DNA of 49,926 bases, taken from UHGV virus genome UHGV-1353897. The stretch is one strand, 5' to 3'. Shown in pieces: positions 8,757 to 46,674 of the stretch. Below the pieces are notes generated by a model, which saw only the letters and a list, made by a program, of their open reading frames with translations, was not told the DNA's origin and did no database searches. This stretch comes from a virus. Each line of letters begins with the position of its first letter. The first letter of the stretch is position 1. Both the position numbers and the translations under genes were made by a program.

Positions 8757-8785
8757 AAGCCCAGTCAAGTACTGGGCTTTTAAAT
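8757..8785 (+). terminator. rho-independent terminator
   Basis: AAGCCCAGT-caagt-ACTGGGCTT hairpin followed by TTTTAAATT, directly after stop of CDS 8425..8739. Confidence 0.55.
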
Positions 8786-10996: not shown

Positions 10997-11605
10997 ATGT
11001 CACTGAAAAACTTACTGAAACGCATCTTCACCACTGTTGAAGCCAACGTCACCACAAGTCTGGATAAACTGACCGACACCGAAAAGCGCCTGAACCTGGC
11101 TGCTCGCAAGCTGTCTGACGAAATCCGTCGCCTGGAGGAAGCCCGTGTCACCAACGTCCGCAACGGCGTCAAGCTGAAGAAGACCGCAGAACAGAACCTG
11201 AGTGAAGCCGCCAAGCGCGAAGAAGTTCTGAAGGATGCCATCGCTCGTGGTGTCACACCAACCCGCGCCGACGCCCTGATTATTCTGCATCGCCGCCGTA
11301 TCGGTGAAGCCCTGTTGTCTCAGGTGAAGGACATCGAAGCAAGCAGCGACAAACTGAACGGTGCGATCATCCAGCTGGGTGACAAACTGGACGAAGTCAA
11401 GTCCAATCTCGAGCTGGTTCGTGTTCAGAAAGAGACGAACGACCTGGGTCTGGTGCTCCCTGAAGATATCGATTATGCCGCTGGTATGACCACCATCGAT
11501 ATCGATGCCATCCTGCGCGAAACCGAAATCGCTGATTCGAGCTACTCCGCCAACAGCCCGTCGTCTATCGAAGCCGACAACTACCTCGCCAGCCTGAGCA
11601 AATAA
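10997..11605 (+). CDS. coiled-coil protein (PspA/IM30-like?)
   Basis: 202 aa, strongly alpha-helical heptad-like composition reminiscent of PspA/IM30; weak assignment. Confidence 0.35.
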   Translation: MSLKNLLKRIFTTVEANVTTSLDKLTDTEKRLNLAARKLSDEIRRLEEARVTNVRNGVKLKKTAEQNLSEAAKREEVLKDAIARGVTPTRADALIILHRRRIGEALLSQVKDIEASSDKLNGAIIQLGDKLDEVKSNLELVRVQKETNDLGLVLPEDIDYAAGMTTIDIDAILRETEIADSSYSANSPSSIEADNYLASLSK

Positions 11606-11619
11606 CATCAGAGGGGCTT

Positions 11620-12180
11620 ATGCCCCTCTATCACTTCGGGGATCTTATGAACATTATTGATTCTTTCAACATACTCACTGGTGCTACTGCTTTCGTTCTT
11701 TTGTGTATTGGCAGTGCCTGGCTGAGAGGTCGACTGAAGAAACGGGAAGTCTTGAAGCGAGACCGTGTTGACATCCACAAAATAATGCTGGATAGAACTT
11801 GCAAACATGGCCCCAGCGGTGACTTCCGTTTGTATTATTTGTCGGATGAAGTCACCCCTTCGGAATTCTTCAATTATGCGATGACTGGGTTGCATTGGCC
11901 GGAGATAAATGACGTTGTTCAGAAAAACGATTACGTGTACGTGAATATGGCTTCTCTGAACAAGCACGGGGAACGCGACGATCTGCGGATGTGGTTCTTT
12001 GGAGGAGAGGAACAAGAAGAGTTCGTAAAAGAACTTGCTCTCTTGCTTAACACGTACGAAAAGGCTGGTTGCCCACCACTCGAGGTGGAAGAATCAGTAG
12101 AATCTATCGTGGCTCGCGCTCGTGGTGAAACCGTGGATCTACTGAACAAATACGGCTTTGTCTGGGCGGAGGGTTCATGA
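11620..12180 (+). CDS. hypothetical protein (N-terminal TM helix)
   Basis: 186-aa ORF with hydrophobic segment near N-terminus. Confidence 0.5.
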   Translation: MPLYHFGDLMNIIDSFNILTGATAFVLLCIGSAWLRGRLKKREVLKRDRVDIHKIMLDRTCKHGPSGDFRLYYLSDEVTPSEFFNYAMTGLHWPEINDVVQKNDYVYVNMASLNKHGERDDLRMWFFGGEEQEEFVKELALLLNTYEKAGCPPLEVEESVESIVARARGETVDLLNKYGFVWAEGS

Positions 12181-12242
12181 TGGATACAGAAACATTTGCG
12201 GTCATTATCAGCCAAGCAAGATCCCACACCCGCCAATAATCT

Positions 12243-15086: not shown

Positions 15087-16673
15087 TTACCATTCCCACA
15101 GGATGCGGGAATTATCTGTTTTGTTCTCAGGCTCAAGATATGAGCTGTTGAAGTTATTGGTCGTGTTGATCCTCTTAGAAGCATCCACATTCTGCTGTAC
15201 TGGCATCACGACGCTGGCTGGAGGCGGTGAATAGCCGCCTTGTACTTGCTCAATATTAGACAGCGCCCTCCCTTGTGATGGCATGGCCCCGCCCAGAGTA
15301 CCACCCCCGATAGAACCATACGCAGCTTTCAGCTGAGAGGTGCGGTCATTAGTCATATTCTTGTCATCCGAAGACGCACCAGAAGGTATTGGAGTCAGCG
15401 TTTGTGGATCGATGTTCGGTTGTGCTGGCGTCTGTGGCTGCTGGGTCTCTGTCACATTAGGAGATGGATTCTCATCAGTGTCAATCAGCATAGACTGGCG
15501 AGCCTCATCCATCTTCTGCTTCGCAGTCTGTCCACCCAGAGCGTCAGGGATGATGCTGACGAACTTGTCAACGATATCGAACATCGCATTGGTGATTGTG
15601 TTCAGCATATTGAAGAAAGGTTTCTTCACATTTTCGGCAAATCCCTTCTTGATATCGTCAATGACCTTGTTGGCCACACCCATGCCCTCGTCGATCACAC
15701 TACTGATACCCCCTGTGATCCAGTCTACCAGCTTCATCAACTCGGACTGTAGGTTGTCTGCTAACTTGCCAGGGATATCCGTAAGAGACGTGTCTCTCCC
15801 GATCCCTGCAAACAAGTCGTTGCTAATCCAGTCGATAATACCATTCAGCCAACGAGCGGGAGCCTCAGTGATCATGAGGGTGTATTTGCGCAGGGTTTCA
15901 CCCGCCTCGGTATCAAAGCCAAAGATCTTGGACACCCAGTCAAATAGATCACCAAATCCACCAACCAGTTCTGATATCCCCGCCCGTACTCGGTCAACTA
16001 TCGTGACAGCACCTTTACCCAGGATCTCCTTCGCATCAATGAAGCCTTTACCGAAGTCCCAGATCATAGACAGGAGAGCCAGTGGGCCGACTTTCAGGAA
16101 CTTGAACACCTTCCCAAATGGGCCCAGAAGTTTGGTGATACCTTCTCCCAGCTTGGAGAACATGCCGAGGAAAGTCCCGACAACACCACCGATGATCTTG
16201 AACGGCTTGAGCAAGAAGCCCTTCAGTGCATTCAGGCCAAGCATGGCCGCCACCGCCGCCCCGATACCGGAGGAATCGTCTTTCTGGTCATCGTCTTTGG
16301 GTATAACAGAACCCGCCTGAGGATGACCACCCGTTTCTTTGTCGGTTTCCCCACGGCGCATCTCGTCCTTCTCACGCCACTTCTGGTCTTCATCAAAGAT
16401 GCGTGTCAACACTCCAACGATATGACCACCCGTGCGCCCAATCTTGTTTTCAATGCTAGACAAGCGAGTAAGGGTGTCATCGGAGTTCTTTTTCAGTTCA
16501 GCAACATCGTCACGAACCTCGATCATCACCCCGTCGATCATGTTCAAGAATGATCCCACGCGGACCAGAGACACACTCTGCTCGTCCATGCGCTTGAGGG
16601 TGTCATCATTGGCAGACTTCAGCTGGTCTGAGATCAGGTTAAGATACTCCAAGGACGTGTCATCTGTTGGCAT
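15087..16673 (-). CDS. tail tape-measure-like protein (gp29-like?)
   Basis: 528 aa, Gly-rich amphipathic repeats (GxxGxxK..), Gln/Pro-rich tail; last gene of a structural gene run. Confidence 0.4.
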   Translation of the reverse strand: MPTDDTSLEYLNLISDQLKSANDDTLKRMDEQSVSLVRVGSFLNMIDGVMIEVRDDVAELKKNSDDTLTRLSSIENKIGRTGGHIVGVLTRIFDEDQKWREKDEMRRGETDKETGGHPQAGSVIPKDDDQKDDSSGIGAAVAAMLGLNALKGFLLKPFKIIGGVVGTFLGMFSKLGEGITKLLGPFGKVFKFLKVGPLALLSMIWDFGKGFIDAKEILGKGAVTIVDRVRAGISELVGGFGDLFDWVSKIFGFDTEAGETLRKYTLMITEAPARWLNGIIDWISNDLFAGIGRDTSLTDIPGKLADNLQSELMKLVDWITGGISSVIDEGMGVANKVIDDIKKGFAENVKKPFFNMLNTITNAMFDIVDKFVSIIPDALGGQTAKQKMDEARQSMLIDTDENPSPNVTETQQPQTPAQPNIDPQTLTPIPSGASSDDKNMTNDRTSQLKAAYGSIGGGTLGGAMPSQGRALSNIEQVQGGYSPPPASVVMPVQQNVDASKRINTTNNFNSSYLEPENKTDNSRILWEW

Positions 16674-16736
16674 GCGGGTGATCTCACCGAGGCGTCAATC
16701 TTGCCTGCGATGTTCTCCAGTTCCCGATTGCCTTCG

Positions 16737-17033
16737 TTACCCCACATCGACAGTATCCTTCATCCATACGCTGAAGTCGCGGGTGAAGATCGGAGACATG
16801 CGAGCGAATCCCATGACGATCTCATTGACTGTCGGGATACGGATTTCAAATGGCTTGGACTCGGCCTTGGTGCCCTGTTTGGTGGCAGATTCCAGCTTGG
16901 CCAGATTCTTGTTCATCCGGTCAAGCTGTTTGTTGGTTTCATTCTGAGCGCGGAGTTGTTTGCGCTGCATCATCTCCGCCTTGATCTTGTCTAGAACTTT
17001 GACAACATCATTGTTCGTTGCTTCCTGTGCCAT
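16737..17033 (-). CDS. hypothetical coiled-coil protein
   Basis: 98 aa, Lys/Gln/Glu-rich helical; separated from downstream tape-measure-like ORF by 63 nt with stops in all frames. Confidence 0.4.
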   Translation of the reverse strand: MAQEATNNDVVKVLDKIKAEMMQRKQLRAQNETNKQLDRMNKNLAKLESATKQGTKAESKPFEIRIPTVNEIVMGFARMSPIFTRDFSVWMKDTVDVG

Positions 17034-24056: not shown

Positions 24057-24475
24057 TCTTTCACTTCCAGACCCATCAGATCTTCCATGGTCTTCTGAAT
24101 ACGCAGCCAGTCAAGCGCAGCGTCATAACGAGGGTCATGATAGACCATACCTTCCAGTTCCCACGCCTTGATACCAGCATACCGATCCTGCTGTCCAACA
24201 CCCTTCAGCCAACTCACGATGTCGAAGGTGTGGTGGTAATCCCAAGGCTCGTTGGAGTCCTGCTTACACGTCACCTCAATGATGTGCTGAGCCTTGCGCA
24301 GATCAAACAGGTTACGGTCACACCAGTCAACCGAGCGCGGGTCTACCCCAAGACGATGACAACCCTTGCGGATTTCATCGGCCAATTGGAAGATAGAGAT
24401 GTCATCTTCCTTGGGATACAGACTGACGGCGCGAGCCGCATCACACGGGTTACGTTTACCCGCCCCAACCACCAT
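24053..24475 (-). CDS. hypothetical protein
   Basis: 140-aa ORF; overlaps ORF 24343..24684 by about 130 nt in another frame. Confidence 0.45.
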   Translation of the reverse strand: MVVGAGKRNPCDAARAVSLYPKEDDISIFQLADEIRKGCHRLGVDPRSVDWCDRNLFDLRKAQHIIEVTCKQDSNEPWDYHHTFDIVSWLKGVGQQDRYAGIKAWELEGMVYHDPRYDAALDWLRIQKTMEDLMGLEVKE

Positions 24476-24684
24476 TCTACCGTCCCCTGGTCCTTCACGC
24501 GACCAAGTTCGAGCTGCTCTTTGACATTCAGCTTAATGAACGTCGTGCGCTCCTCAACCAGCTGCTGAAGAGTATAACGCTTGGTCAGGTCGGCGATGGT
24601 GTGTGCCCAAGACAGCATGACTGCATCATCCCAGCGCCCCAAGGTTTCACTGTCGGCCACAGCCAAAAAATTTGATTTATACAT
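24343..24684 (-). CDS. hypothetical protein (start region likely real; 3' extent uncertain)
   Basis: 113-aa ORF covering otherwise uncovered 24476-24676; long out-of-frame overlap with 24053..24475 suggests frameshift or a shorter gene. Confidence 0.3.
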   Translation of the reverse strand: MYKSNFLAVADSETLGRWDDAVMLSWAHTIADLTKRYTLQQLVEERTTFIKLNVKEQLELGRVKDQGTVEWWLGRVNVTRVMRLAPSVCIPRKMTSLSSNWPMKSARVVIVLG

Positions 24685-24928
24685 GTTTATTCTCCCAACA
24701 CTTTATTTTGGCTTTTACTGTATAATAATTTTCATCAATGAACTTTTTGTTGACGCGCTTAATTTCTATCTCTGGGCAAAGTAACCCTATAGTTTCCCTC
24801 AAAATCTGGCTCACCCTGGCCTGTGAAATACAATAAATTTCTGATACTTCTTTCGAACTAGATCCAGACATGACAAGTTTTAGGATATTGACCTTTTTAT
24901 AAAATTCTTGATCAAACGCGCATATCAT
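24677..24928 (-). CDS. small HTH protein (sigma-70 region-4/LuxR-like helix-turn-helix)
   Basis: 83 aa with ISQARVSQILRET helix-turn-helix-like segment; gene lies in a markedly AT-rich island. Confidence 0.45.
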   Translation of the reverse strand: MICAFDQEFYKKVNILKLVMSGSSSKEVSEIYCISQARVSQILRETIGLLCPEIEIKRVNKKFIDENYYTVKAKIKCWENKHV

Positions 24929-25544
24929 TATTCACCCCCTCCACCCGGATAATTTCTTCTTCAGAATCGACGACGTTGATATCATCGTCCAGCGCGTTCA
25001 GATTTTCCATGTCTTCCGCAAACTTGTCTACTTCCATGATGTAGAACACGGGGACAACCCGGCAGCGAGTGTCTTCATACAGGGTTTCAGCCAGCGCTTC
25101 CACCTGGCGGACAACGTCATACAGATTCAGACCGCCGATGCCACAGCCGATAGCAGGCAGGCCGACATAGACAGTTTCGTCTTTAGTTGCTTCCACAATT
25201 TCATGCACCTGCTCAAACAGGGTCTGAACAGAACTGATGACAGACGGCATGCGAGCATTCGGACCTGGATAAAACTGAGTGTAGAGGTTCGCACCCCAGA
25301 CACCAGTGCTGTGGTCAAATGCATAGGACATGCCACCCAGGCGTTGCTCTGGACCACGAGGGTCGTTAGCATCGACTTCACGCAGGGCTGGGAAGTTGTT
25401 ACCGATGTGCAGGGCAATACCAGCGCCCATGGTAGACCAACAGTTGGCACCGTGGGCAAAGATGTCGATCAGATTGAAGCTACAGGCGGCTTTCAGTAAA
25501 TCGCCGCCATTGATTACATAGGTTGTCATGCGTACTGTCTCCAT
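24912..25544 (-). CDS. macro-domain protein (ADP-ribose binding/hydrolase-like)
   Basis: Two macro-domain signatures: HGANCWSTMGAGIALHI (cf. NAAN..GGGV..AIHRAAG) and VGLPAIGCGIGGL (cf. FPAISTGIYG). Confidence 0.6.
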   Translation of the reverse strand: METVRMTTYVINGGDLLKAACSFNLIDIFAHGANCWSTMGAGIALHIGNNFPALREVDANDPRGPEQRLGGMSYAFDHSTGVWGANLYTQFYPGPNARMPSVISSVQTLFEQVHEIVEATKDETVYVGLPAIGCGIGGLNLYDVVRQVEALAETLYEDTRCRVVPVFYIMEVDKFAEDMENLNALDDDINVVDSEEEIIRVEGVNNDMRV

Positions 25545-26232: not shown

Positions 26233-26508
26233 CTATTCAATCCAAATTTCAGGTTCAGAGATGTCGACCATATCCACTGTCTGGTTCTTCAGATCATGGA
26301 AACAGTCGCCGAGGAATTGTATTTTGCCGTCGGTCAGGAACAGATGGCAACGTGATGCTGGATCAGATGCATTCACCAGCAGGCTCGGTGTGAACGTAGG
26401 CTCAATAATATTGTTGTTCCACATCCACATCAAGACCTTGGATTTCGCCCTTAATGCGATACAGATGAAGTATATCACACCCAGGACAATGAAAATACAA
26501 GGAATCAT
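26233..26508 (-). CDS. small membrane protein
   Basis: 91 aa with N-terminal TM helix. Confidence 0.4.
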   Translation of the reverse strand: MIPCIFIVLGVIYFICIALRAKSKVLMWMWNNNIIEPTFTPSLLVNASDPASRCHLFLTDGKIQFLGDCFHDLKNQTVDMVDISEPEIWIE

Positions 26509-26547
26509 CCATAGACAGAAGTTTAGGGCTCAGAAGCTATGTTATGA

Positions 26548-26876: not shown

Positions 26877-28205
26877 TTATAGGCCAAGAGCCTTTTCAAG
26901 GTCATCAAGGTCTTCAGTGTAAAGATCGATGTCCTCTTTCTTACTTAATTCCTTATGTTGTGCTTCAAGGTTCTCAATCTGCTTGAGTAGGCGCTCACGG
27001 GCGTCCAGAGTAATAGACGACAGAGGCATCTTGAACAACTCGTCAAGATCACCACCAAAGTCCGGGTAGTCCTGCATGAACAGAGACTTCAGCACGTCAA
27101 TCTTTTGGCGGAGATCAACACGCGTCGCCCATTCAATGAACACCGCCCGGTCACCCAGCTTGCGGATCCTGTCTGCCATGTCCTTCAACAGATACTGGCG
27201 ACGGTCTTCGTACCGTGACAGGCGATAATTGAAGAACGGCAGCAACATGTCCCGCCAACCAGAATAACGATGAATAACACCGTCTTCATCCCATGCTGTC
27301 CACACAGGCTTGGTGGCTGAATACAGCTTGAACATCTGCTCAACCTGCTCGTCACTCAGCTTAGAGAGTTCGCCGCGCTTAAACACAACCGTGATATCCC
27401 AGCCATCTTCTGTCGTGTCGTTGGCGTACTCGGTGAGGATACCAGCCTTGTACAGAGGCAGCAACACCTTGGTCTCATAGGTCTTGGCAAACCAACCCAC
27501 TGGGACTTCGGTGATATGCAGGGTCGTGGCATTGACGCGACGGAAGATGCCGCGACTGTATGCTCTTCCTTCCTCAGTATAGCCTGTCTCTCCTTTGAAG
27601 CCGTTCCAGTACGGTTTTAAGTCTTTCGGGTCTTCGCCACGGAGAAGCGCTCTCAGGGCATTCAGCACGGACTTAACGCAATGACACGGGGTGTCGGTGG
27701 AATATCCGGTGCCGATACCATTGATCCCATTCACCAGGAACATGGGTAGGATGGGCAGAAAGAACTTCGGCTCCAGTCTTTCTTCACCAAGGTAGTTGTA
27801 TTCCAAAATACCCTCATCCTCCTTGCGGAAGATCTTGCGGATAACGTCAGATACAGCGACGGATATGTATCGGGCAGATGAAGCATCACGCCCCATGATA
27901 GAACCAAACTGGCCATCGCGGTCAAAGTACGGGATGTTGTTCGTGCCTGGGAACCCCTGAGCCATGTTCACGATAGTGCCGCTCATGTTCTCACCACCAG
28001 ACTTGTAGTTGGTGCGAGCGGCGGCGAACATACCAAGGCGGTCAACAATCTCCTCCTTGTTGTACTCAAGAGCAGCGAAAAGGATCTTGCGCTGGCTTGG
28101 CTTGAGGCTGTCAATCAGCTGAGGGATTTGACGGATGCTGTTGACCACAGAAAACTGCTTATGGTCAGTGTTGACAAAGTCCGTTACAGTAATGCTCTTA
28201 GCAAC
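26877..28205 (-). CDS. 52: DNA topoisomerase II medium subunit (GyrA-like; T4 gp52-like)
   Basis: GyrA/ParC-like N-terminal breakage-reunion region (SIRQIPQLIDSLKPSQRKILFA...); start moved to ATG 28205 (GAGGA SD) just after upstream stop; ORF track gives 28289. Confidence 0.85.
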   Translation of the reverse strand, partial: VAKSITVTDFVNTDHKQFSVVNSIRQIPQLIDSLKPSQRKILFAALEYNKEEIVDRLGMFAAARTNYKSGGENMSGTIVNMAQGFPGTNNIPYFDRDGQFGSIMGRDASSARYISVAVSDVIRKIFRKEDEGILEYNYLGEERLEPKFFLPILPMFLVNGINGIGTGYSTDTPCHCVKSVLNALRALLRGEDPKDLKPYWNGFKGETGYTEEGRAYSRGIFRRVNATTLHITEVPVGWFAKTYETKVLLPLYKAGILTEYANDTTEDGWDITVVFKRGELSKLSDEQVEQMFKLYSATKPVWTAWDEDGVIHRYSGWRDMLLPFFNYRLSRYEDRRQYLLKDMADRIRKLGDRAVFIEWATRVDLRQKIDVLKSLFMQDYPDFGGDLDELFKMPLSSITLDARERLLKQIENLEAQHKELSKKEDIDLYTEDLDDLEKALGL

Positions 28206-28209
28206 CATC

Positions 28210-29376
28210 TTATTCATCCTCAGTTTCAAACAGGCAAACATCGCTAAACCAGGTTTTACGGTAATCGGCAGCCTCATCACCGAAGCCATTCTTCAGTGAC
28301 TGTTGGTAGCCATCGTCCAGCGTGACCGTCGTAGTATACGCATCCAGGTTGTTTAGAATACGTTTGAAGTCTTCAGTGCTGTTACCACCCAGACCTTTCA
28401 GATATTTCTTCTTCGTGATCTTCTTGGCATCAGGCGTCTTCAGGAACTCCTCATACTCTGCGTTGTTCATGAACTCATGCATCACCTTACCACACCACAC
28501 ACGCATGTAAGGGGTGCGCAGGAGCTTCAGCCTGCCCTGACGGACATACTCCGGCCAGTAGGTGCAATACAGGGTGATCAACAACCCACGGATGTGGATG
28601 CCGTCATCGTCCGCATCGGTAGCCACAACAGTCTGTGGGTAACGGGTGATATCAAGGGGCTGGCCTGGCACTGCGCCGCCATGGATCGTACACAGGTTCT
28701 TGAACTCTTCATTGTTCATCACCTTTGAGCGCGGGGCGTTCAGGCAGTTGATGAACTTACCACGAAGCGGGAACAACCCGATCTTCTTGGTGTCGCGGGC
28801 GTTCAGGATAGGATTGGAGGCACTATCACCCTCTGTCAGCAACAGGGAGCATCCGCTGCGGTCACCACGGGCGGTCGCCGGGTAATACTTCTCAATCTCA
28901 CGATAATCCCGTTTGCTGATGTCCTTCTTGGCCTTTTCAAACTCAGCATCATCCTGCTCATTGCGCAGGGAAGCCAGTTCTTTGCTCAGACCAGCCGTAA
29001 CGAACTCAAGCGCCTTGCGGATCAGTTTATCGCTGGGCTTGTACGACGTACCGAACTGGCTGACAGGAGTGGTCATGCGCTCCTTGGTCTGGCTGTCAAA
29101 GCGCGGGTTGTTGATGTCGGCGGCGATGAACAAGGACATGTGGTTCTTGATCATTGCTGGCTTCAGTTCGGTCTTGAACTTCTTCACCAGCTGGGGACGA
29201 ATCGCTGCCACGATCTGGTCAGCAACATAATCAACGTGAGGACCACCGATGTGGGTGGCAATAGAGTTCACGTATGATGCGTGCATGAACGTACCGGATG
29301 AAGGGGCTACAGCAACAGACCAATCCCCCGGTTTGCAACAGCCGAACCAGCATGGAATAATCAACGAAGTGGCCAA
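28210..29376 (-). CDS. 39: DNA topoisomerase II large subunit, transducer + Toprim portion
   Basis: GyrB-like transducer (GGPHVDYV, FDSQTKERM) and Toprim (LLLTEGDSASN); frame is open well upstream of the listed start and overlaps the ATPase ORF. Confidence 0.8.
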   Translation of the reverse strand: MATSLIIPCWFGCCKPGDWSVAVAPSSGTFMHASYVNSIATHIGGPHVDYVADQIVAAIRPQLVKKFKTELKPAMIKNHMSLFIAADINNPRFDSQTKERMTTPVSQFGTSYKPSDKLIRKALEFVTAGLSKELASLRNEQDDAEFEKAKKDISKRDYREIEKYYPATARGDRSGCSLLLTEGDSASNPILNARDTKKIGLFPLRGKFINCLNAPRSKVMNNEEFKNLCTIHGGAVPGQPLDITRYPQTVVATDADDDGIHIRGLLITLYCTYWPEYVRQGRLKLLRTPYMRVWCGKVMHEFMNNAEYEEFLKTPDAKKITKKKYLKGLGGNSTEDFKRILNNLDAYTTTVTLDDGYQQSLKNGFGDEAADYRKTWFSDVCLFETEDE

Positions 29377-30116
29377 AGCGTCAATCCGGATTTGCTCCCG
29401 TTGAGAACAATCTTCAGGCGCGGGTTACACGCAGCCACTTCAAACGCGCGGCGATAGATCATCAGCAGGTTGTTCTGGTCAAGTCCTTTGACGCCCAGAC
29501 GAGCATAGTCAGGGATCCAGGCGATGGATGTGCCAGGACTGTTCACGTTGCTGATGACTGGGTTAGATTTCTTGCTCATGTTGTCTTCAAACGTCTGAGT
29601 ATAAGACTTCTTGCCGTCATTAGTCGTGACGCGGAACCATTTGGAGAACACGTTGACGAGGGACGCCCCTTCGCCATTCTGACCACCGGACTTCTGGTTG
29701 TTGTACTCTTCGTCTTCGTCGTTGAAGTTCGATCCCGCATATAGAGAGCCGAACAACATTTCAGGAAGCCACTCGTTGGTGACGCCATGCTTGACCACAG
29801 GGATACCTCCGTTGTCAGCAACGATGATTTGACCGTTCATCGGGGAAACTGTGACGGTGATTTCCGTCAGGGATTTACCCTCAGGGGTCTTGCTGTGGTC
29901 AACACAGTTGGTGATGATTTCATCAAACTGTTTGATCAGCGCGGGGGAGTACTCAAAGTTGTCACGGAAGATGACTTTGTCCTTAGTTGGGTCATACACC
30001 CACACCGTCCCCACAGACGAACGAATACTGCCCAGATGACGCTCTGGGCGGAGTAGGATATGCTCAACGTGAGTGAGCTTCTTGTACTTGCGTTCAATAT
30101 CAATTTTGTTGGACAT
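29361..30116 (-). CDS. 39: DNA topoisomerase II large subunit, N-terminal GHKL ATPase portion
   Basis: YKKLTHVEHILLRPERHLGS N-terminus typical of T4 gp39/GyrB; ITNCVDH N-box; VADNGGIPV G1-box; ends in stop after 251 aa while homology continues in the -1 frame. Confidence 0.8.
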   Translation of the reverse strand: MSNKIDIERKYKKLTHVEHILLRPERHLGSIRSSVGTVWVYDPTKDKVIFRDNFEYSPALIKQFDEIITNCVDHSKTPEGKSLTEITVTVSPMNGQIIVADNGGIPVVKHGVTNEWLPEMLFGSLYAGSNFNDEDEEYNNQKSGGQNGEGASLVNVFSKWFRVTTNDGKKSYTQTFEDNMSKKSNPVISNVNSPGTSIAWIPDYARLGVKGLDQNNLLMIYRRAFEVAACNPRLKIVLNGSKSGLTLWPLR

Positions 30117-30164
30117 CGGCCTATCCCGTCAATGGTAAACACACAAGATTATGTATGGGGTCGC

Positions 30165-30746
30165 TTATAGACCAAATTTGCTACGCCACTTTTCAACCTT
30201 GTGTTCAATAGCGTGCTCCACTTTAATGCGAGTGGCCATCAAAGAGGATCCACGGATCGCCCCTTCCCCACACCCCATGCGCGCAACATGCTTGATTAGG
30301 TCATTGACGAGTTGATCCAATCTGTCTTGACTGCGATAAGGCTGGTTGCACAACCGGATAATCCGGCCATGATAATGATGGATAAGATTCAGATGCTTTT
30401 GAGGATCACGATCAATCAGACGGAACCAGTCTTCTTCCAACAGATTAGAAGAAATATCGTTCACTGTCGCCATGTGGTTGATGACAGAGTCGATCATTTC
30501 GGCCTTGTTCAGAGAGCCGCGCATTTGGACGTCGTCATAATCCATGACGTACAGAAGGTCAATAGCAGAGATAATGACATCAGAAACTTCGCCATTCAAC
30601 GGCTCGGAAGATACTATGCCATGAAACACATCAGACAGTTCACAGATCTCTTCACCTAGTTTGTTCAGAACAAACACAGGAGAACGGTCTGGGGTATGAG
30701 CAGTACAGTCATAAGAAGTGTCGACGATAGTGTGTAGAAATTTCAT
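30165..30746 (-). CDS. hypothetical protein (possible all-alpha NTP pyrophosphatase-like)
   Basis: 193 aa; LGEEICELSDV and EVSDVIISAIDLLYV loosely resemble MazG EExxE/ELxDV motifs; weak. Confidence 0.3.
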   Translation of the reverse strand: MKFLHTIVDTSYDCTAHTPDRSPVFVLNKLGEEICELSDVFHGIVSSEPLNGEVSDVIISAIDLLYVMDYDDVQMRGSLNKAEMIDSVINHMATVNDISSNLLEEDWFRLIDRDPQKHLNLIHHYHGRIIRLCNQPYRSQDRLDQLVNDLIKHVARMGCGEGAIRGSSLMATRIKVEHAIEHKVEKWRSKFGL

Positions 30747-40956: not shown

Positions 40957-41601
40957 TTAAAAATTAAACGGATAACGACGACGGCCACCATTGTACTCCA
41001 TTCGCTGTAATATGAAAATTGCGGTGAACGGTAGACAGCCCAGTAGAACAACAATCACAACTTCCCAGGTCTTGAGTTCCCGCCACTTCAGGTACTCCAT
41101 TTCCTTCATCTCAACGCGGTTGTAGCCTTTGGTGATGTTAGCGACAACATCAGCCATGACACCGACACCCATGTCGTGGCCTGTGAGAGCCATGCCATTG
41201 CGAGAATGGAGTTCACGGTTATGCATACCATCAGCGAACGAAGTGCTCTTGCCCCAGTTGATCTTCAGGTCTTTGTTGATGTCGGTCACGACGATAACGT
41301 CGTTCTTTTTACCACCATCCCAAGCATAGACCAAGCCCTGGAAGTATTCAACTGGCTGACCGGAAGTCACAACCCAGACGATGTTCACCTGCTTGGCTGC
41401 GCCCAGCTTCTTCAGGACATCGTTCAGATAGTCGTTCCAGTATGTGGTCGGTAACGCCAGACCAGACACATTCAGTACACGAGTGACGCGATAGTAGTCA
41501 TAGACCTCAGGGTACTTGGGAATCTTGTCTTTGAAGCGCTCAGCAAACTGCTGGTCCGAGCGAGAGAACAAAGAGTCCTTGTTACCCAGCACATAGTTCA
41601 T
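40957..41601 (-). CDS. membrane protein (C-terminal TM helix)
   Basis: 214-aa ORF; hydrophobic segment near C-terminus. Confidence 0.45.
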   Translation of the reverse strand: MNYVLGNKDSLFSRSDQQFAERFKDKIPKYPEVYDYYRVTRVLNVSGLALPTTYWNDYLNDVLKKLGAAKQVNIVWVVTSGQPVEYFQGLVYAWDGGKKNDVIVVTDINKDLKINWGKSTSFADGMHNRELHSRNGMALTGHDMGVGVMADVVANITKGYNRVEMKEMEYLKWRELKTWEVVIVVLLGCLPFTAIFILQRMEYNGGRRRYPFNF

Positions 41602-42071
41602 GTAGGAATGCTCACGAGCTGCGGGTTCGCCGATCTGAACCTGCGCCCAGCGCGGGGCTGACCAAGACCGCGACGATCAATGCGGTCAATCGTCAGATTA
41701 CCGACAGTCGTCAACACATCCCAGTCCACGTCATATGAATGCTCATAACATGTACTGCAATGGCGAGTGCGGGTACAGGACTTGCTGCTGCCGGAGCCGG
41801 AGCATGATGTGGTGTAGTAGCAGTTGCATTCATATGAATGCTCACAGCTCACCTTATTCCGCTCCTTTGCAGTGACGTACCCGTTCAGGATCTCAACATC
41901 CCCTGAACTGCCAAGGGAGAACGCAGCATAAGTCCCCGCCTGAATCAGACAGGATAGCACCACTACAATCGCGGTCGCTATCAGAGTCTCTTTCGGCTCA
42001 TGGGTCTTGCGGTGGTAGGCCACAAACAAAATAGCCAGTACCAATGGCACACCAAACAGGAGGTAGATCAT
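41598..42071 (-). CDS. membrane-anchored Cys-rich protein
   Basis: 157 aa; N-terminal TM helix; CEHSYECNCYYTTSCSG..CTRTRHCSTC cluster. Confidence 0.4.
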   Translation of the reverse strand: MIYLLFGVPLVLAILFVAYHRKTHEPKETLIATAIVVVLSCLIQAGTYAAFSLGSSGDVEILNGYVTAKERNKVSCEHSYECNCYYTTSCSGSGSSKSCTRTRHCSTCYEHSYDVDWDVLTTVGNLTIDRIDRRGLGQPRAGRRFRSANPQLVSIPT

Positions 42072-42966: not shown

Positions 42967-43076
42967 GATAATATCCTCGCTTTATAGGCGAGGATATTTA
43001 TATCAGCGTTTCAAGAGTGCCATGAGGTTGACGCTGCTGGACTTCGACTTGTCCTCAACCTTGCGCACAGGCATCT

Positions 43077-44237
43077 TCAGGTTCGTACATACCTCGGATG
43101 GTTCCCAGCGCGACCCTTTTGCAGGTGCCAGATATGCAGAGGAACACCAGTCTCAAAGAACACAGGCATCTTCCACTTCTGGACGCCTGGAACGTGCCCT
43201 GCAGGAGCCTTTTCGCACAACAGGGTATCTGGTAGCCAGAGCGAACGGGCTTCCCAGAGCGCTGCGCAGGAGTATTCAGGCCAGACGCGTTCCATGTAGT
43301 CTATCTCATCCCAGGTACGCTCTGCGTCCCACCCGATGTAACGGGTATTCTTCAGTCGGAAGAATTTCTTCAGCCAACAAGCACCGGAGGTTTCAAAGTT
43401 CAGGCGGTTGATGAACGTCAGGTGCCCGAACTCAGCCACACAATCTTGGAACGCCTGCTCAAGGTCGGCCTCAAGGATGTCACACTCTTCATCCGTGATA
43501 GGACAACCGTTGATCTTTTTCTTCCCGTGTTTAGTCACCCAATCGTCACGGTTGGACAAGAACGCCGCTCCATTACGGTTGGACTCGCTTCCATCACGAT
43601 CACGCAACATGAAGCCAGGGACGTCAATGGTGTATTCGTTCCCGAAGACCATGTTCAGGGCTTCCAGGAAGTTCCAGGCGCTCAGGCGACCGAAGTATTT
43701 CCAGGACATCGCCGTGTCCCACAGCTGGGTGAATTGTTCTGTCTTATCGATACACACCAACATCCCACGGAAAGCGTCATATTGAGTACGGCCAGCCAGC
43801 CAGTCAATATAGGACTGAACACACGGAATCATCTTGGACTTGCGGTAGCGACAGTCGGTATCGAATCGCATGCGATCAAAGTTCAGATTATACCAATCAG
43901 AGAAGCGCTGCATCTCTTCCTTAGACTGAGGCGGCACAGGGAACTCACTGTAGATAGTCCACGGCCCGACAGCGTTATAGCAACAACCCCACAGGAATGC
44001 CATCCAGATCTTGCGCTCGACTTTCTGTTCGAGGCTGATACCTTCAGTGACTTCAATCGCATAGTCCATCAGACGCATCTGCTGGTTGTGCTCTTCTGTG
44101 TAGGACAGCGCCTCCACCCAAGCCTTGAGCAAGTACATGCGATTCTCAGGCTTGCGATAATCAACAGCCAGGTCAATCGGGTACTTCCATTCAGTCGGAG
44201 GCGTATAGCCCGTCGGCATTTTAGATAGATGCGTCAT
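43077..44237 (-). CDS. hypothetical protein (Trp/Cys-rich, 386 aa)
   Basis: Long ORF with protein-like composition; no motif recognised. Confidence 0.55.
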   Translation of the reverse strand: MTHLSKMPTGYTPPTEWKYPIDLAVDYRKPENRMYLLKAWVEALSYTEEHNQQMRLMDYAIEVTEGISLEQKVERKIWMAFLWGCCYNAVGPWTIYSEFPVPPQSKEEMQRFSDWYNLNFDRMRFDTDCRYRKSKMIPCVQSYIDWLAGRTQYDAFRGMLVCIDKTEQFTQLWDTAMSWKYFGRLSAWNFLEALNMVFGNEYTIDVPGFMLRDRDGSESNRNGAAFLSNRDDWVTKHGKKKINGCPITDEECDILEADLEQAFQDCVAEFGHLTFINRLNFETSGACWLKKFFRLKNTRYIGWDAERTWDEIDYMERVWPEYSCAALWEARSLWLPDTLLCEKAPAGHVPGVQKWKMPVFFETGVPLHIWHLQKGRAGNHPRYVRT

Positions 44238-44577: not shown

Positions 44578-44777
44578 TTTGGTTCCTTGAATATTTTGTA
44601 ACCAGCAGCGCCGATAGACATCACCGCGCCAATACAGTACATCACAGTCACGTTCAACTTCTCTGAGGTTGTTAAGTCCAGAGGGGTGAAATGATAGGCT
44701 AGGGCAGTACACATTGAAACGGCTGCCATAACCAGACCAATGAACAACAGATAATTAGACAACCGTTTCATGATCAC
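44574..44777 (-). CDS. small membrane protein
   Basis: 67 aa with two TM helices. Confidence 0.4.
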   Translation of the reverse strand: MIMKRLSNYLLFIGLVMAAVSMCTALAYHFTPLDLTTSEKLNVTVMYCIGAVMSIGAAGYKIFKEPK

Positions 44778-46369
44778 CCCTTCTTCATCAGGTCAAGGAG
44801 AGAGCGCGACGCTGCCTTCGTTGCTTCTGGCTGGGCGCTCGCCTTGGTTTTAGTTTTGGATGCCTTCTGTGGCTTCTCAGGGACTCTGTGTGCCAAAGGG
44901 TTGCTACCTCTTATCTTGCGCAGCATGGGATACTGCTCGCAATATTTATGGAATTCATCTTTTGAAAGATTAAGCCCAACAAAGTCAATAACAAAGTCAC
45001 CGATAACCGCCAACGGGGCGTCAAAATATTTCAGGATGTTCCAGCCGACGGCCTTCACACCGTTTCCATTAGCAGCCTTGGCAATGAAGAGTTCATGATT
45101 GGAATCCGGTTCCAGCTCATACCCAATAGCAGAATATTCGCCCATGATCTTGACATGATCCTTGGTGTATTGATCGTTTCGTCCCCAGCCAGTGTCCTTC
45201 GCCGCCTTACCAGAACGACCGATGATACGCTTGTCGTAATCTTCCCGTGCCTGATAGATGAATGAGATGAATGCCATGTTGTTGAACCCCAAGTCCTGGT
45301 GTACGAACTTAGGACGCCACCGATGGCTCTGCATCATAGGTTCCCCTTCCAATATGATGGTAGAATCCTTGTATTTCCCTTTGATGTATTTCACCAATGA
45401 ATTGGCCATCTCAGAAGTCTTGAGAGTGGAGTGGATGAAGTCCATGGAAGTCCAAGAAGCCAGATCTGATTTGTTGGACACTGTATACTTGCCGATGAAC
45501 ACCAGATTGATTTCCTTGAACCAAAACCCAACCTGGATCATCTTCTTGTCGAATTCGTATTCTATGAGTTCTGGCTCATATTTGGTTCTCAACCACTCAA
45601 GGAATTGAACGACACGAGTCCCCTTTCCCGTTCCACTTGTCCCGCGAATAACGACAATACCCGGCGTCACGCTAGAATTTATCATAGTCATAAAACGTTT
45701 GTCCTCTTTGGGAATCCAACCATCTTTAAACATGGCGATCATATTACGAAAGACGCTCTCATCGCCCTTTAGATTACGATACTCTGTGTCCAGTAGTTTA
45801 GAATACCACAATCCGATAGATTTGTAACCACATCCTCGTTTTGGCATACAGGTAGGATTCACAGTACCGCCGTTGTTCACCCATCTATCATAGATCCTAC
45901 GGGCGTCCTTCCAAACCCACCAATAACCATTTGAAACCATGAATGGGTAGGGAGAATTACCCCTGTTCTCCTTTATTGATTTTATTACACGTTCCCGGTA
46001 TTCTGGATCATCCCAAGGATTTATACCAGATTTGTATTTCTTGCCAGTCCTAGCCAACGCCGCCTTAAATTGGTTTGGTATGATAGAATTGTCTCCTCCC
46101 AATTTCAGGTTCAGGCATAATGGGTCCAACAGTAACTCTTCCGTAACAATAATAGACTCCAGGTCGGATGCCTCCAACCTGGTTTCAAACTTTTCTATTA
46201 TCGTCTTTAAGAATTCAGAAGCGGGGTGAGATTCCAACAACCTTTTGATGATAACACCAGAACCCATATAGGGGTCTTGTTCGGGGGTGCATGAACAAGA
46301 CCGAATCCCGACGTAGAATCTCCCAGTTGGGACATGAGTTATCCTATATGTGTAATGGTAGCGAGCCAT
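44774..46369 (-). CDS. GIY-YIG-like N-terminal domain fused to P-loop NTPase-like domain
   Basis: N-terminus YHYTYRITHVPTGRFYVGIRSC..YMGSG resembles GIY-YIG nuclease motif; central Walker A GTSGTGKGT; 531 aa continuous ORF. Confidence 0.5.
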   Translation of the reverse strand: MARYHYTYRITHVPTGRFYVGIRSCSCTPEQDPYMGSGVIIKRLLESHPASEFLKTIIEKFETRLEASDLESIIVTEELLLDPLCLNLKLGGDNSIIPNQFKAALARTGKKYKSGINPWDDPEYRERVIKSIKENRGNSPYPFMVSNGYWWVWKDARRIYDRWVNNGGTVNPTCMPKRGCGYKSIGLWYSKLLDTEYRNLKGDESVFRNMIAMFKDGWIPKEDKRFMTMINSSVTPGIVVIRGTSGTGKGTRVVQFLEWLRTKYEPELIEYEFDKKMIQVGFWFKEINLVFIGKYTVSNKSDLASWTSMDFIHSTLKTSEMANSLVKYIKGKYKDSTIILEGEPMMQSHRWRPKFVHQDLGFNNMAFISFIYQAREDYDKRIIGRSGKAAKDTGWGRNDQYTKDHVKIMGEYSAIGYELEPDSNHELFIAKAANGNGVKAVGWNILKYFDAPLAVIGDFVIDFVGLNLSKDEFHKYCEQYPMLRKIRGSNPLAHRVPEKPQKASKTKTKASAQPEATKAASRSLLDLMKKG

Positions 46370-46674
46370 TACACAGCATCCTCAATACGCCAGCTCACGC
46401 CGCCCAGCCAAGGTGCCCAGAACACAGCAACCTGCGGACGACCGTTTTCTTCAAACTTAACTTTATACTGGTCGTCGAAGTTATAGAAGATTTCATCCGA
46501 TTCAGAGCGCTGGCCGATCTTCACCAGTACATCATGAAGAGCCTTGGCTGCGCCGATAGGAGTCGGAGTCTCCTGCTGGCGAATGAAGTTGTTCACATGG
46601 TTAATCACGCCATCCATGTCGCTATCACCGGAACGCTTGTCGGGGATTTCCCCGAACTTATTCTGATCTTGCAC
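46369..46674 (-). CDS. hypothetical protein
   Basis: 101-aa ORF. Confidence 0.45.
   Translation of the reverse strand: MQDQNKFGEIPDKRSGDSDMDGVINHVNNFIRQQETPTPIGAAKALHDVLVKIGQRSESDEIFYNFDDQYKVKFEENGRPQVAVFWAPWLGGVSWRIEDAV

Follow-up and report, generated by a model that had tools for sequence, protein, structure and literature searches.

A frame break in the topoisomerase II large-subunit gene of a phage assembly is best explained by clustered sequencing or assembly indels

In bacteriophage T4, the large subunit of type II topoisomerase is encoded by two genes, 39 and 60, and this split, like the translational bypass in gene 60, comes with inserted DNA: 60.1, mobA and a 50-nucleotide (nt) non-coding gap. 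The gene 60 gap is a 50-nt insert (bioRxiv 10.1101/2022.08.31.505936). Among Ackermannviridae (Aglimvirinae/Agtrevirus-like) phages, the large subunit is annotated as a single coding sequence (CDS) of 636-637 amino acids (aa) in Escherichia phages YX22 (WPH64598.1) and LHE287 (XAN60175.1), Enterobacter phage fGh-Ecl02 (USL85960.1) and Salmonella phage P46FS4 (YP_009889502.1). The first, second and third of these are the closest relatives of the DNA described here, and their intact protein has 636 aa.

We analysed the corresponding gene in a viral genome assembly of 49,926 nt (UHGV-1353897), the whole of which we call the window. A megablast search with positions 28100-30200 matched 243 phage records, nearly all from Ackermannviridae, with YX22 (99.1%), fGh-Ecl02 (98.7%) and LHE287 (98.7%) as the best matches; the matched stretch measures 2106 nt in these three phages and 2101 nt in the window. 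Nucleotide identity between the window and the four relatives is 93.7-99.1% across this stretch. Judged from its nucleotide matches, the window is an Ackermannviridae phage, ~98-99% identical to YX22, LHE287 and fGh-Ecl02.

The topoisomerase II large-subunit gene of the window, a homologue of GyrB and of T4 gp39 plus gp60, lies on the minus strand at 28210..30116 and spans 1907 nt, against 1911 nt in the nearest relatives. As assembled, it is broken into two open reading frames (ORFs) on that strand: ORF1 (30116..29361), which encodes 251 aa with a GHKL ATPase domain, and ORF2 (29376..28210), which encodes 388 aa from a listed TTG start. The frame of ORF2 relative to that of ORF1 is -1 (equivalently +2), and both frames are open over 29424..29361, a stretch of 64 nt. 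The original prediction for this locus had placed the two ORFs at these positions and had described them as overlapping, as we also find; it had put the open stretch of the second frame upstream of the listed start at about 75 nt, which we measure as 48 nt (16 codons). The topoisomerase II medium-subunit gene (T4 gp52/GyrA-like; 28208..26880, minus strand) is intact and encodes 443 aa with a DNA_topoisoIV domain (PF00521, E = 8e-66). It shows 99.8% identity in a single frame, and it starts 2 nt past the large-subunit stop, as it does in the relatives. Phage SKML-39 has an HNH endonuclease gene after its large-subunit gene; the window has none at that place.

The two ORFs together contain the domains of a type IIA topoisomerase ATPase subunit. 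Residues 61-159 of ORF1 match the GHKL family PF02518 (E = 2e-5) with 25.4 bits, just below the curated cut-off of 26.4 bits, and this match together with 30% identity to T4 gp39 identifies a GHKL ATPase at the N-terminus. ORF2 carries, in the expected order and above cut-off, the transducer (DNA_gyraseB, PF00204; 63.5 bits), Toprim (PF01751; 25.9 bits) and TOPRIM_C (PF16898; 45.7 bits) domains. Both the frames and the Pfam matches thus bear out the earlier observation that GyrB-like homology, transducer and then Toprim, carries on in the -1 frame. ATPase and transducer lie on one polypeptide in the five relatives for which CDS tables were read; they lie on two in the window as assembled and are joined once four bases are restored (see below). 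The break falls within the first ~30 positions of the PF00204 model, upstream of the detectable match, and not at a domain boundary.

A 101-aa peptide spanning the junction matched 1,449 phage records; in 1,448 of these, 80% or more of the peptide is covered by a single matched place. We sampled 40 rows from throughout the ranking, T4-like phages among them, and in each the match is in one piece and one frame. The original prediction had allowed that the ATPase domain might naturally end at the ORF1 stop; the homologues examined are continuous coding sequence there.

We resolved the anatomy of the break with a MAFFT alignment of the window and the four relatives. It places four 1-nt gaps within 62 nt of the large-subunit gene, accompanied by a few substitutions, and no further indel in its 1.9 kb. 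Read along the minus strand, the in-frame N-terminal part (29397..30116; aa 1-240, GHKL ATPase) ends in ...KIVLNG, after which the intact protein continues as KQIRIDRFGHFVDYFHAGSAVDE..., whereas ORF1 reads SKSGLTLWPLR followed by a TGA stop (out-of-frame tail, 29361..29396). In the relatives, the four sites occur in the order GGGAAGC...GACCGC...TTACTTCC...TTGACGAAACC. At the first site (29396..29397), GGGAAGC has become GGGAGC by contraction of AA to A, which moves the coding sequence from frame A to frame B; ORF1's TGA is read only because this base is missing. At the second (29380..29381), GACCGC has become GACGC by contraction of CC to C (frame B to C), and at the third (29357..29358) a lone C has been lost, turning TTACTTCC into TTATTCC (frame C to A). 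The fourth site (29329..29336) is complex: the relatives have TTGACGAAACCGGGG and the window has TTGCAAACCGGGGG, a net change of -1 (frame A to B) that can be aligned either as one deletion with three substitutions or, by BLAST, as two deletions with an extra G in a G run. The in-frame C-terminal part then follows (28210..29328; aa 265-636), comprising transducer, Toprim and TOPRIM_C and forming the bulk of ORF2.

Exact peptide matches to the intact YX22 protein, searched in all three frames of the minus strand, trace the same path. Frame A encodes YX22 aa 223-240 up to 29397, frame B encodes aa 242-246 (QIRID) at 29394-29380, frame C encodes aa 247-254 (RFGHFVDY) at 29380-29357, frame A encodes aa 255-261 (FHAGSAV) at 29357-29337, and from 29328 frame B resumes with GDWSVAVAPSS..., which begins at aa 265. 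None of the homologous coding sequence is therefore absent or interrupted, but it takes four frame steps in 62 nt, which leave the last 11 sense codons of ORF1 and the first ~17 of ORF2 out of frame. Between the sites, the sequence is identical to that of YX22 and so gives no sign of decay. Restoring the four bases yields a stop-free ORF of 1911 nt whose 636-aa product departs from that of YX22 at three residues, including two at the fourth site; this minimal repair thus recovers the full-length conserved ORF. The original prediction had held that one -1/+2 shift could join the two ORFs. Its arithmetic is sound, as a net loss of 4 nt equals -1, but the idea is wrong as biology: homology switches frame four times and not once.

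The frame path bears directly on programmed recoding, in which a -1 frameshift or a T4 gene 60-like bypass in the 64-nt overlap would produce the full-length subunit. The frames do overlap and a net -1 shift does join the ORFs. Because of the four frame switches, however, no single shift or hop could join them without 18-24 conserved residues being replaced or deleted. Frameshifting at a programmed site would be expected to involve a single frame change conserved in relatives, and we find four changes here and relatives that are in frame. From 29450 to 29361, which includes the overlap, there is no zero-frame slippery heptamer of the form X XXY YYZ. The predicted fold of a 131-nt segment (-36.1 kcal/mol; pseudoknots lie outside the model) is no more stable than that of shuffled sequences (mean -37.6 kcal/mol, z = 0.44). 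A single -1 frameshift is rejected in view of the four changes in the frame of homology together with the lack of a heptamer and of significant structure.

Bypass was assessed by scanning all take-off/landing pairs for the last eight codons of ORF1 over 127 positions. One pair stands out, in that the TGG codons at 29375 and 29322 have exactly 50 nt between them and landing at the second resumes in the ORF2 frame. This pair has no adjoining stop, a bypass there would remove conserved residues, and the scan is expected to give ~2 such codon matches per take-off codon by chance. CGT is the codon ahead of the TGA, and landing at any of its downstream matches would continue reading in frame A or C instead of the correct one, so that no take-off codon next to the stop has a frame-restoring landing codon. 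The T4 gap is a non-coding insert of ~50 nt, whereas here nothing has been inserted, the window being 4 nt shorter, and the supposed gap encodes homologue residues 242-264 in shifted frames. The T4 site also lies at the gp39/gp60 junction beside a mobile-element insertion; no inserted ORF is present here. A gene 60-like bypass is rejected as well, the landing pairs being chance matches and the supposed gap homologous coding sequence. The same region is in frame in relatives with 99% identity, so no recoding signal is conserved. Programmed recoding, one of the options raised in the original prediction, is contradicted by the frame path, by the lack of heptamer and structure and by the in-frame relatives, and we regard it as extremely unlikely.

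A second option raised there was a true gene split at a new point, that is, a natural, evolved division at the ATPase/transducer boundary like that of T4 genes 39 and 60 but located elsewhere. T4 provides the precedent, as its type II topoisomerase subunits are split, and its proteins are those of a homologous enzyme. The alignment of T4 gp39 (516 aa; 30% identity over 490 aligned positions) with the intact Ackermannviridae protein covers residues 7-481 and passes through the break uninterrupted, and gp60 (31% over 134 positions) aligns to residues 494-626. The T4 split must therefore lie at ~482-494, in the Toprim region and ~240 residues downstream of the break in the window. With gp39 unbroken at this position and nothing inserted in the window, the proposed analogy to T4 39/60 fails. 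No relative is split at the break, and the break has neither a mobile element nor an intergenic spacer. The tail of ORF1 and the first ~17 codons of ORF2 are frame-shifted homologous coding sequence, so the frame path also counts against a split. We found no Shine-Dalgarno-like sequence before the TTG of ORF2 (29376) or the next in-frame ATG (29286), and ORF2 is thus without a ribosome-binding site; in contrast, the gp52-like start has GAGGA upstream. A natural split in which ORF2 has its own start is rejected on this ground, and an evolved split of any kind at the ATPase/transducer boundary seems to us scarcely credible.

We then asked how the indels in this gene compare with those elsewhere in the assembly. 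The whole window was aligned to LHE287, fGh-Ecl02 and YX22, of which the first 36 kb form a confidently aligned block. Over the full 50 kb, the window has 16 private 1-nt indels. Within the 36-kb block it has 11 private indels of 1-2 nt, compared with 3, 1 and 1 in the three relatives, and the remaining 14 kb contains more window-private 1-nt indels, including those at 41655 and 43112. Short private indels of LHE287 at 44977-45362, in the last 14 kb, lie in a homing-endonuclease region, in which the alignment cannot be relied on.

Ten of the 16 window-private 1-nt indels fall within six conserved genes whose CDSs every relative has intact. The topoisomerase large-subunit gene has four (29335-29397, minus strand), and single indels are found in the DexA exonuclease gene (~24463), a 58-aa gene (26432), a 371-aa gene (~41655; GGGGG to GGGG) and a 411-aa gene that is alpha-glutamyl/putrescinyl thymine pyrophosphorylase-like according to the fGh-Ecl02 annotation (~43112). 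The sixth, a tape-measure-like gene, has a compensating deletion/insertion pair at 16693 and 16740, 47 nt apart, which scrambles ~16 codons and makes no stop. Most of the window-private indels shorten or lengthen a homopolymer (GGGGG to GGGG, CCCCC to CCCC and CCC to CCCC are examples). The private short indels of the relatives in the 36-kb block (window positions 8777, 17044, 21252 and 22796) are all intergenic, the pattern expected of real variation under selection. Frame-breaking indels like those in the topoisomerase gene thus recur elsewhere in the window and do not spare coding sequence, and at the break itself the indels are private to the window, with the relatives agreeing among themselves. 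Under uniform placement, simulation gives p ~1e-5 for four of 16 private indels falling within 62 nt; the cluster is thus a local anomaly, which indicates that the consensus is poor in this stretch and argues against independent events.

These data also bear on the possibility that the indels are real, representing a genuine and very recent inactivating lesion in this isolate, for instance from a single episode of error-prone repair. In that case the gene would be a pseudogene or would yield two fragments, GHKL with a junk tail and transducer-Toprim, with host gyrase or topoisomerase IV making up for the loss. The break is present in the sequence as given, and its tight cluster (p ~1e-5) could in principle reflect one mutational event. 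In T4, topoisomerase II mutants remain viable and show delayed DNA synthesis, so loss of the gene need not kill the phage. Against a real lesion, private 1-nt indels that break or perturb the frame are present in at least five more conserved genes of the same 50 kb, and many simultaneous lesions would be needed in a lytic phage otherwise 98% identical to intact relatives. The lack of a Shine-Dalgarno-like sequence for ORF2 and the position of the break away from a domain boundary also count against it, and the variant k-mers occur in no other assembly of the collections searched. We consider a real lesion unlikely. A variant in which the deletions are real and topoisomerase II still works, through non-covalent association of fragments divided at the ATPase/transducer junction or through low-level frameshifting that tolerates ~20 scrambled linker residues, is very unlikely; if true, it would mean that the large subunit of a phage type II topoisomerase can be split in a second, independent manner.

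Other sequence collections were searched for the variant. An exact-product look-up found no gene product on record identical to ORF1, and the indel-specific k-mers (a 56-mer, three shorter ones and a 38-mer) had no match among the IMG/VR contigs, the JGI metagenomes or the GTDB genomes. Two IMG/VR contigs do contain this stretch in its intact form. The absence of the variant k-mers fits a private error, although an intact k-mer found in only two IMG/VR contigs makes for a thin control. A literature search on frameshifts in Ackermannviridae topoisomerases yielded one paper, which concerns Pseudomonas jumbo phage PaBG.

Overall, our results indicate that the frame break is very probably a sequencing or assembly error, and not recoding or a natural split, and that the real phage most likely has an uninterrupted 636-aa large-subunit gene, as its relatives do. 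We infer that the indels, whose positions, frame path and repair to a full ORF can be read directly from the alignments, would have arisen in sequencing and not in the phage. In this account, four single bases would be missing from ~62 nt of consensus (29335-29397), two from runs of two bases, and a nearby G run may have gained one base. Every lost base would shift the frame by one, so that the true coding sequence would cross all three frames. A chance wrong-frame TGA would end ORF1 and the ORF finder would resume at a chance TTG, with no ribosomal event needed. An assembly indel was the third option in the original prediction, and it fits as to kind; as to number, the data point to a cluster of four to six indels instead of one. 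Four errors in 62 nt would call for a locally bad region, for example where coverage is low, where a read ends or where contigs were joined. Ackermannviridae carry hypermodified thymidines. We considered these as a source of base-calling errors and rejected them, as the plus-strand losses are T, G and G plus the complex site, with no clear thymine bias.

Taken as an error, the break leaves an ordinary Ackermannviridae topoisomerase II large subunit of little biological weight. The locus should be entered as a single gene of 636 aa, or marked as disrupted or of low quality; it should be presented neither as a recoding site nor as a new split. With at least five more genes of this assembly affected by private single-base indels, other frameshifts, pseudogenes or overlapping ORFs found in it need to be compared with close relatives first. 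Were the deletions confirmed, the locus would be a modestly interesting natural experiment on doing without, or splitting, the topoisomerase of this phage group.

This locus can be compared with three known systems. Unlike T4 gene 60, the window lacks an insertion, a take-off/landing geometry and a stem-loop, and its break lies at residues ~240-265. The second comparison is with the homopolymer indel errors of uncorrected or low-coverage assemblies, which, like those in the window, are 1-base length changes, mostly in homopolymers and private to one assembly, that do not spare coding sequence and break otherwise conserved ORFs. The window departs from these in the unusual density of four indels within 62 nt and in two sites that are not homopolymers: neither the loss of the lone C at 29357/8 nor the complex site at 29329-36 is a simple contraction, and a pure homopolymer-error model therefore does not fit there. 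The third comparison is with the Ackermannviridae relatives, with which the window shares a MazG-like gene upstream, the gp52-like medium subunit directly downstream and the domain order GHKL, transducer, Toprim and TOPRIM_C, and from which it differs by the four single bases missing between 29335 and 29397 that break the ORF.

The topoisomerase II large-subunit gene is accompanied in the window by other genes that carry private indels, that is, indels absent from the three nearest relatives (Escherichia phages YX22 and LHE287 and Enterobacter phage fGh-Ecl02). The DexA exonuclease homologue (24062–24684, minus strand) is broken near 24463 and requires two frames, owing to a window-private 1-nt deletion within a run of C residues (CCCC in the window versus CCCCC in YX22); the homologue is intact in all three relatives. 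Contraction of GGGGG to GGGG, again private to the window, divides a 371-aa hypothetical gene (40960–42071, minus strand) between two frames, with the break near 41655. The private deletion of one T shifts the frame near the C-terminus of a 411-aa gene (43006–44237, minus strand; break near 43112), which is unbroken in LHE287, fGh-Ecl02 and YX22. Alpha-glutamyl/putrescinyl thymine pyrophosphorylase clade 2, to which the fGh-Ecl02 record likens this 411-aa gene, is a DNA-hypermodification enzyme. A small hypothetical gene of 58 aa (26353–26512, minus strand) lies in two frames when compared with LHE287, as the result of a private 1-nt insertion near 26432; the sequence around this gene is also more divergent.

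The 648-aa tape-measure-like gene (15090–17033, minus strand) carries two private indels 47 nt apart, at 16693 and 16740: in one, GG has lost 1 nt to become G, and in the other, CCC has gained 1 nt to become CCCC. Together they constitute a compensated frameshift that scrambles ~16 codons and leaves the ORF open.

Larger differences are also found. A 1.2-kb segment of the window (10997–12201), flanked on one side by a 113-aa gene and on the other by the DNA ligase gene, is missing from all three nearest relatives and contains two plus-strand ORFs, of 202 aa (10997–11605; coiled-coil-rich by appearance) and 186 aa (11620–12180). Between the DexA and Tk.4-like genes, a short stretch (24684–25026) has no alignable counterpart in the three relatives, and ~248 nt of it are private to the window; close to this stretch, fGh-Ecl02 has insertions of its own (~440–460 nt, at ~23690). 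The homing-endonuclease region (44777–46372) is highly variable: the window copy shares only 48% protein identity with the LHE287 gene at the equivalent place, and large indels also distinguish the relatives from one another there.

At the junction of the topoisomerase subunit genes, the mechanical ORF of the gp52-like (medium-subunit) gene begins at 28289, giving an 80-nt overlap with the large-subunit gene (28208–28289). Because the annotation of the relatives places the gp52-like start at an ATG equivalent to 28208, with a GAGGA motif upstream, this long overlap is an artefact of the ORF finder. An insertion that some other phages carry in the topoisomerase region is absent from the window and from its closest relatives. 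In Salmonella phage SKML-39, an HNH endonuclease gene (2306–2878 of the SKML-39 sequence) separates the large- and medium-subunit genes at a site corresponding to ~28208–28210 in the window, and phages Ag3, Gloob and AV101 carry an insertion of ~450 nt somewhere within the 2.1-kb topoisomerase stretch (window 28100–30200). The placement of the SKML-39 HNH gene between topoisomerase genes recalls the arrangement in T4, in which mobA lies beside gene 39.
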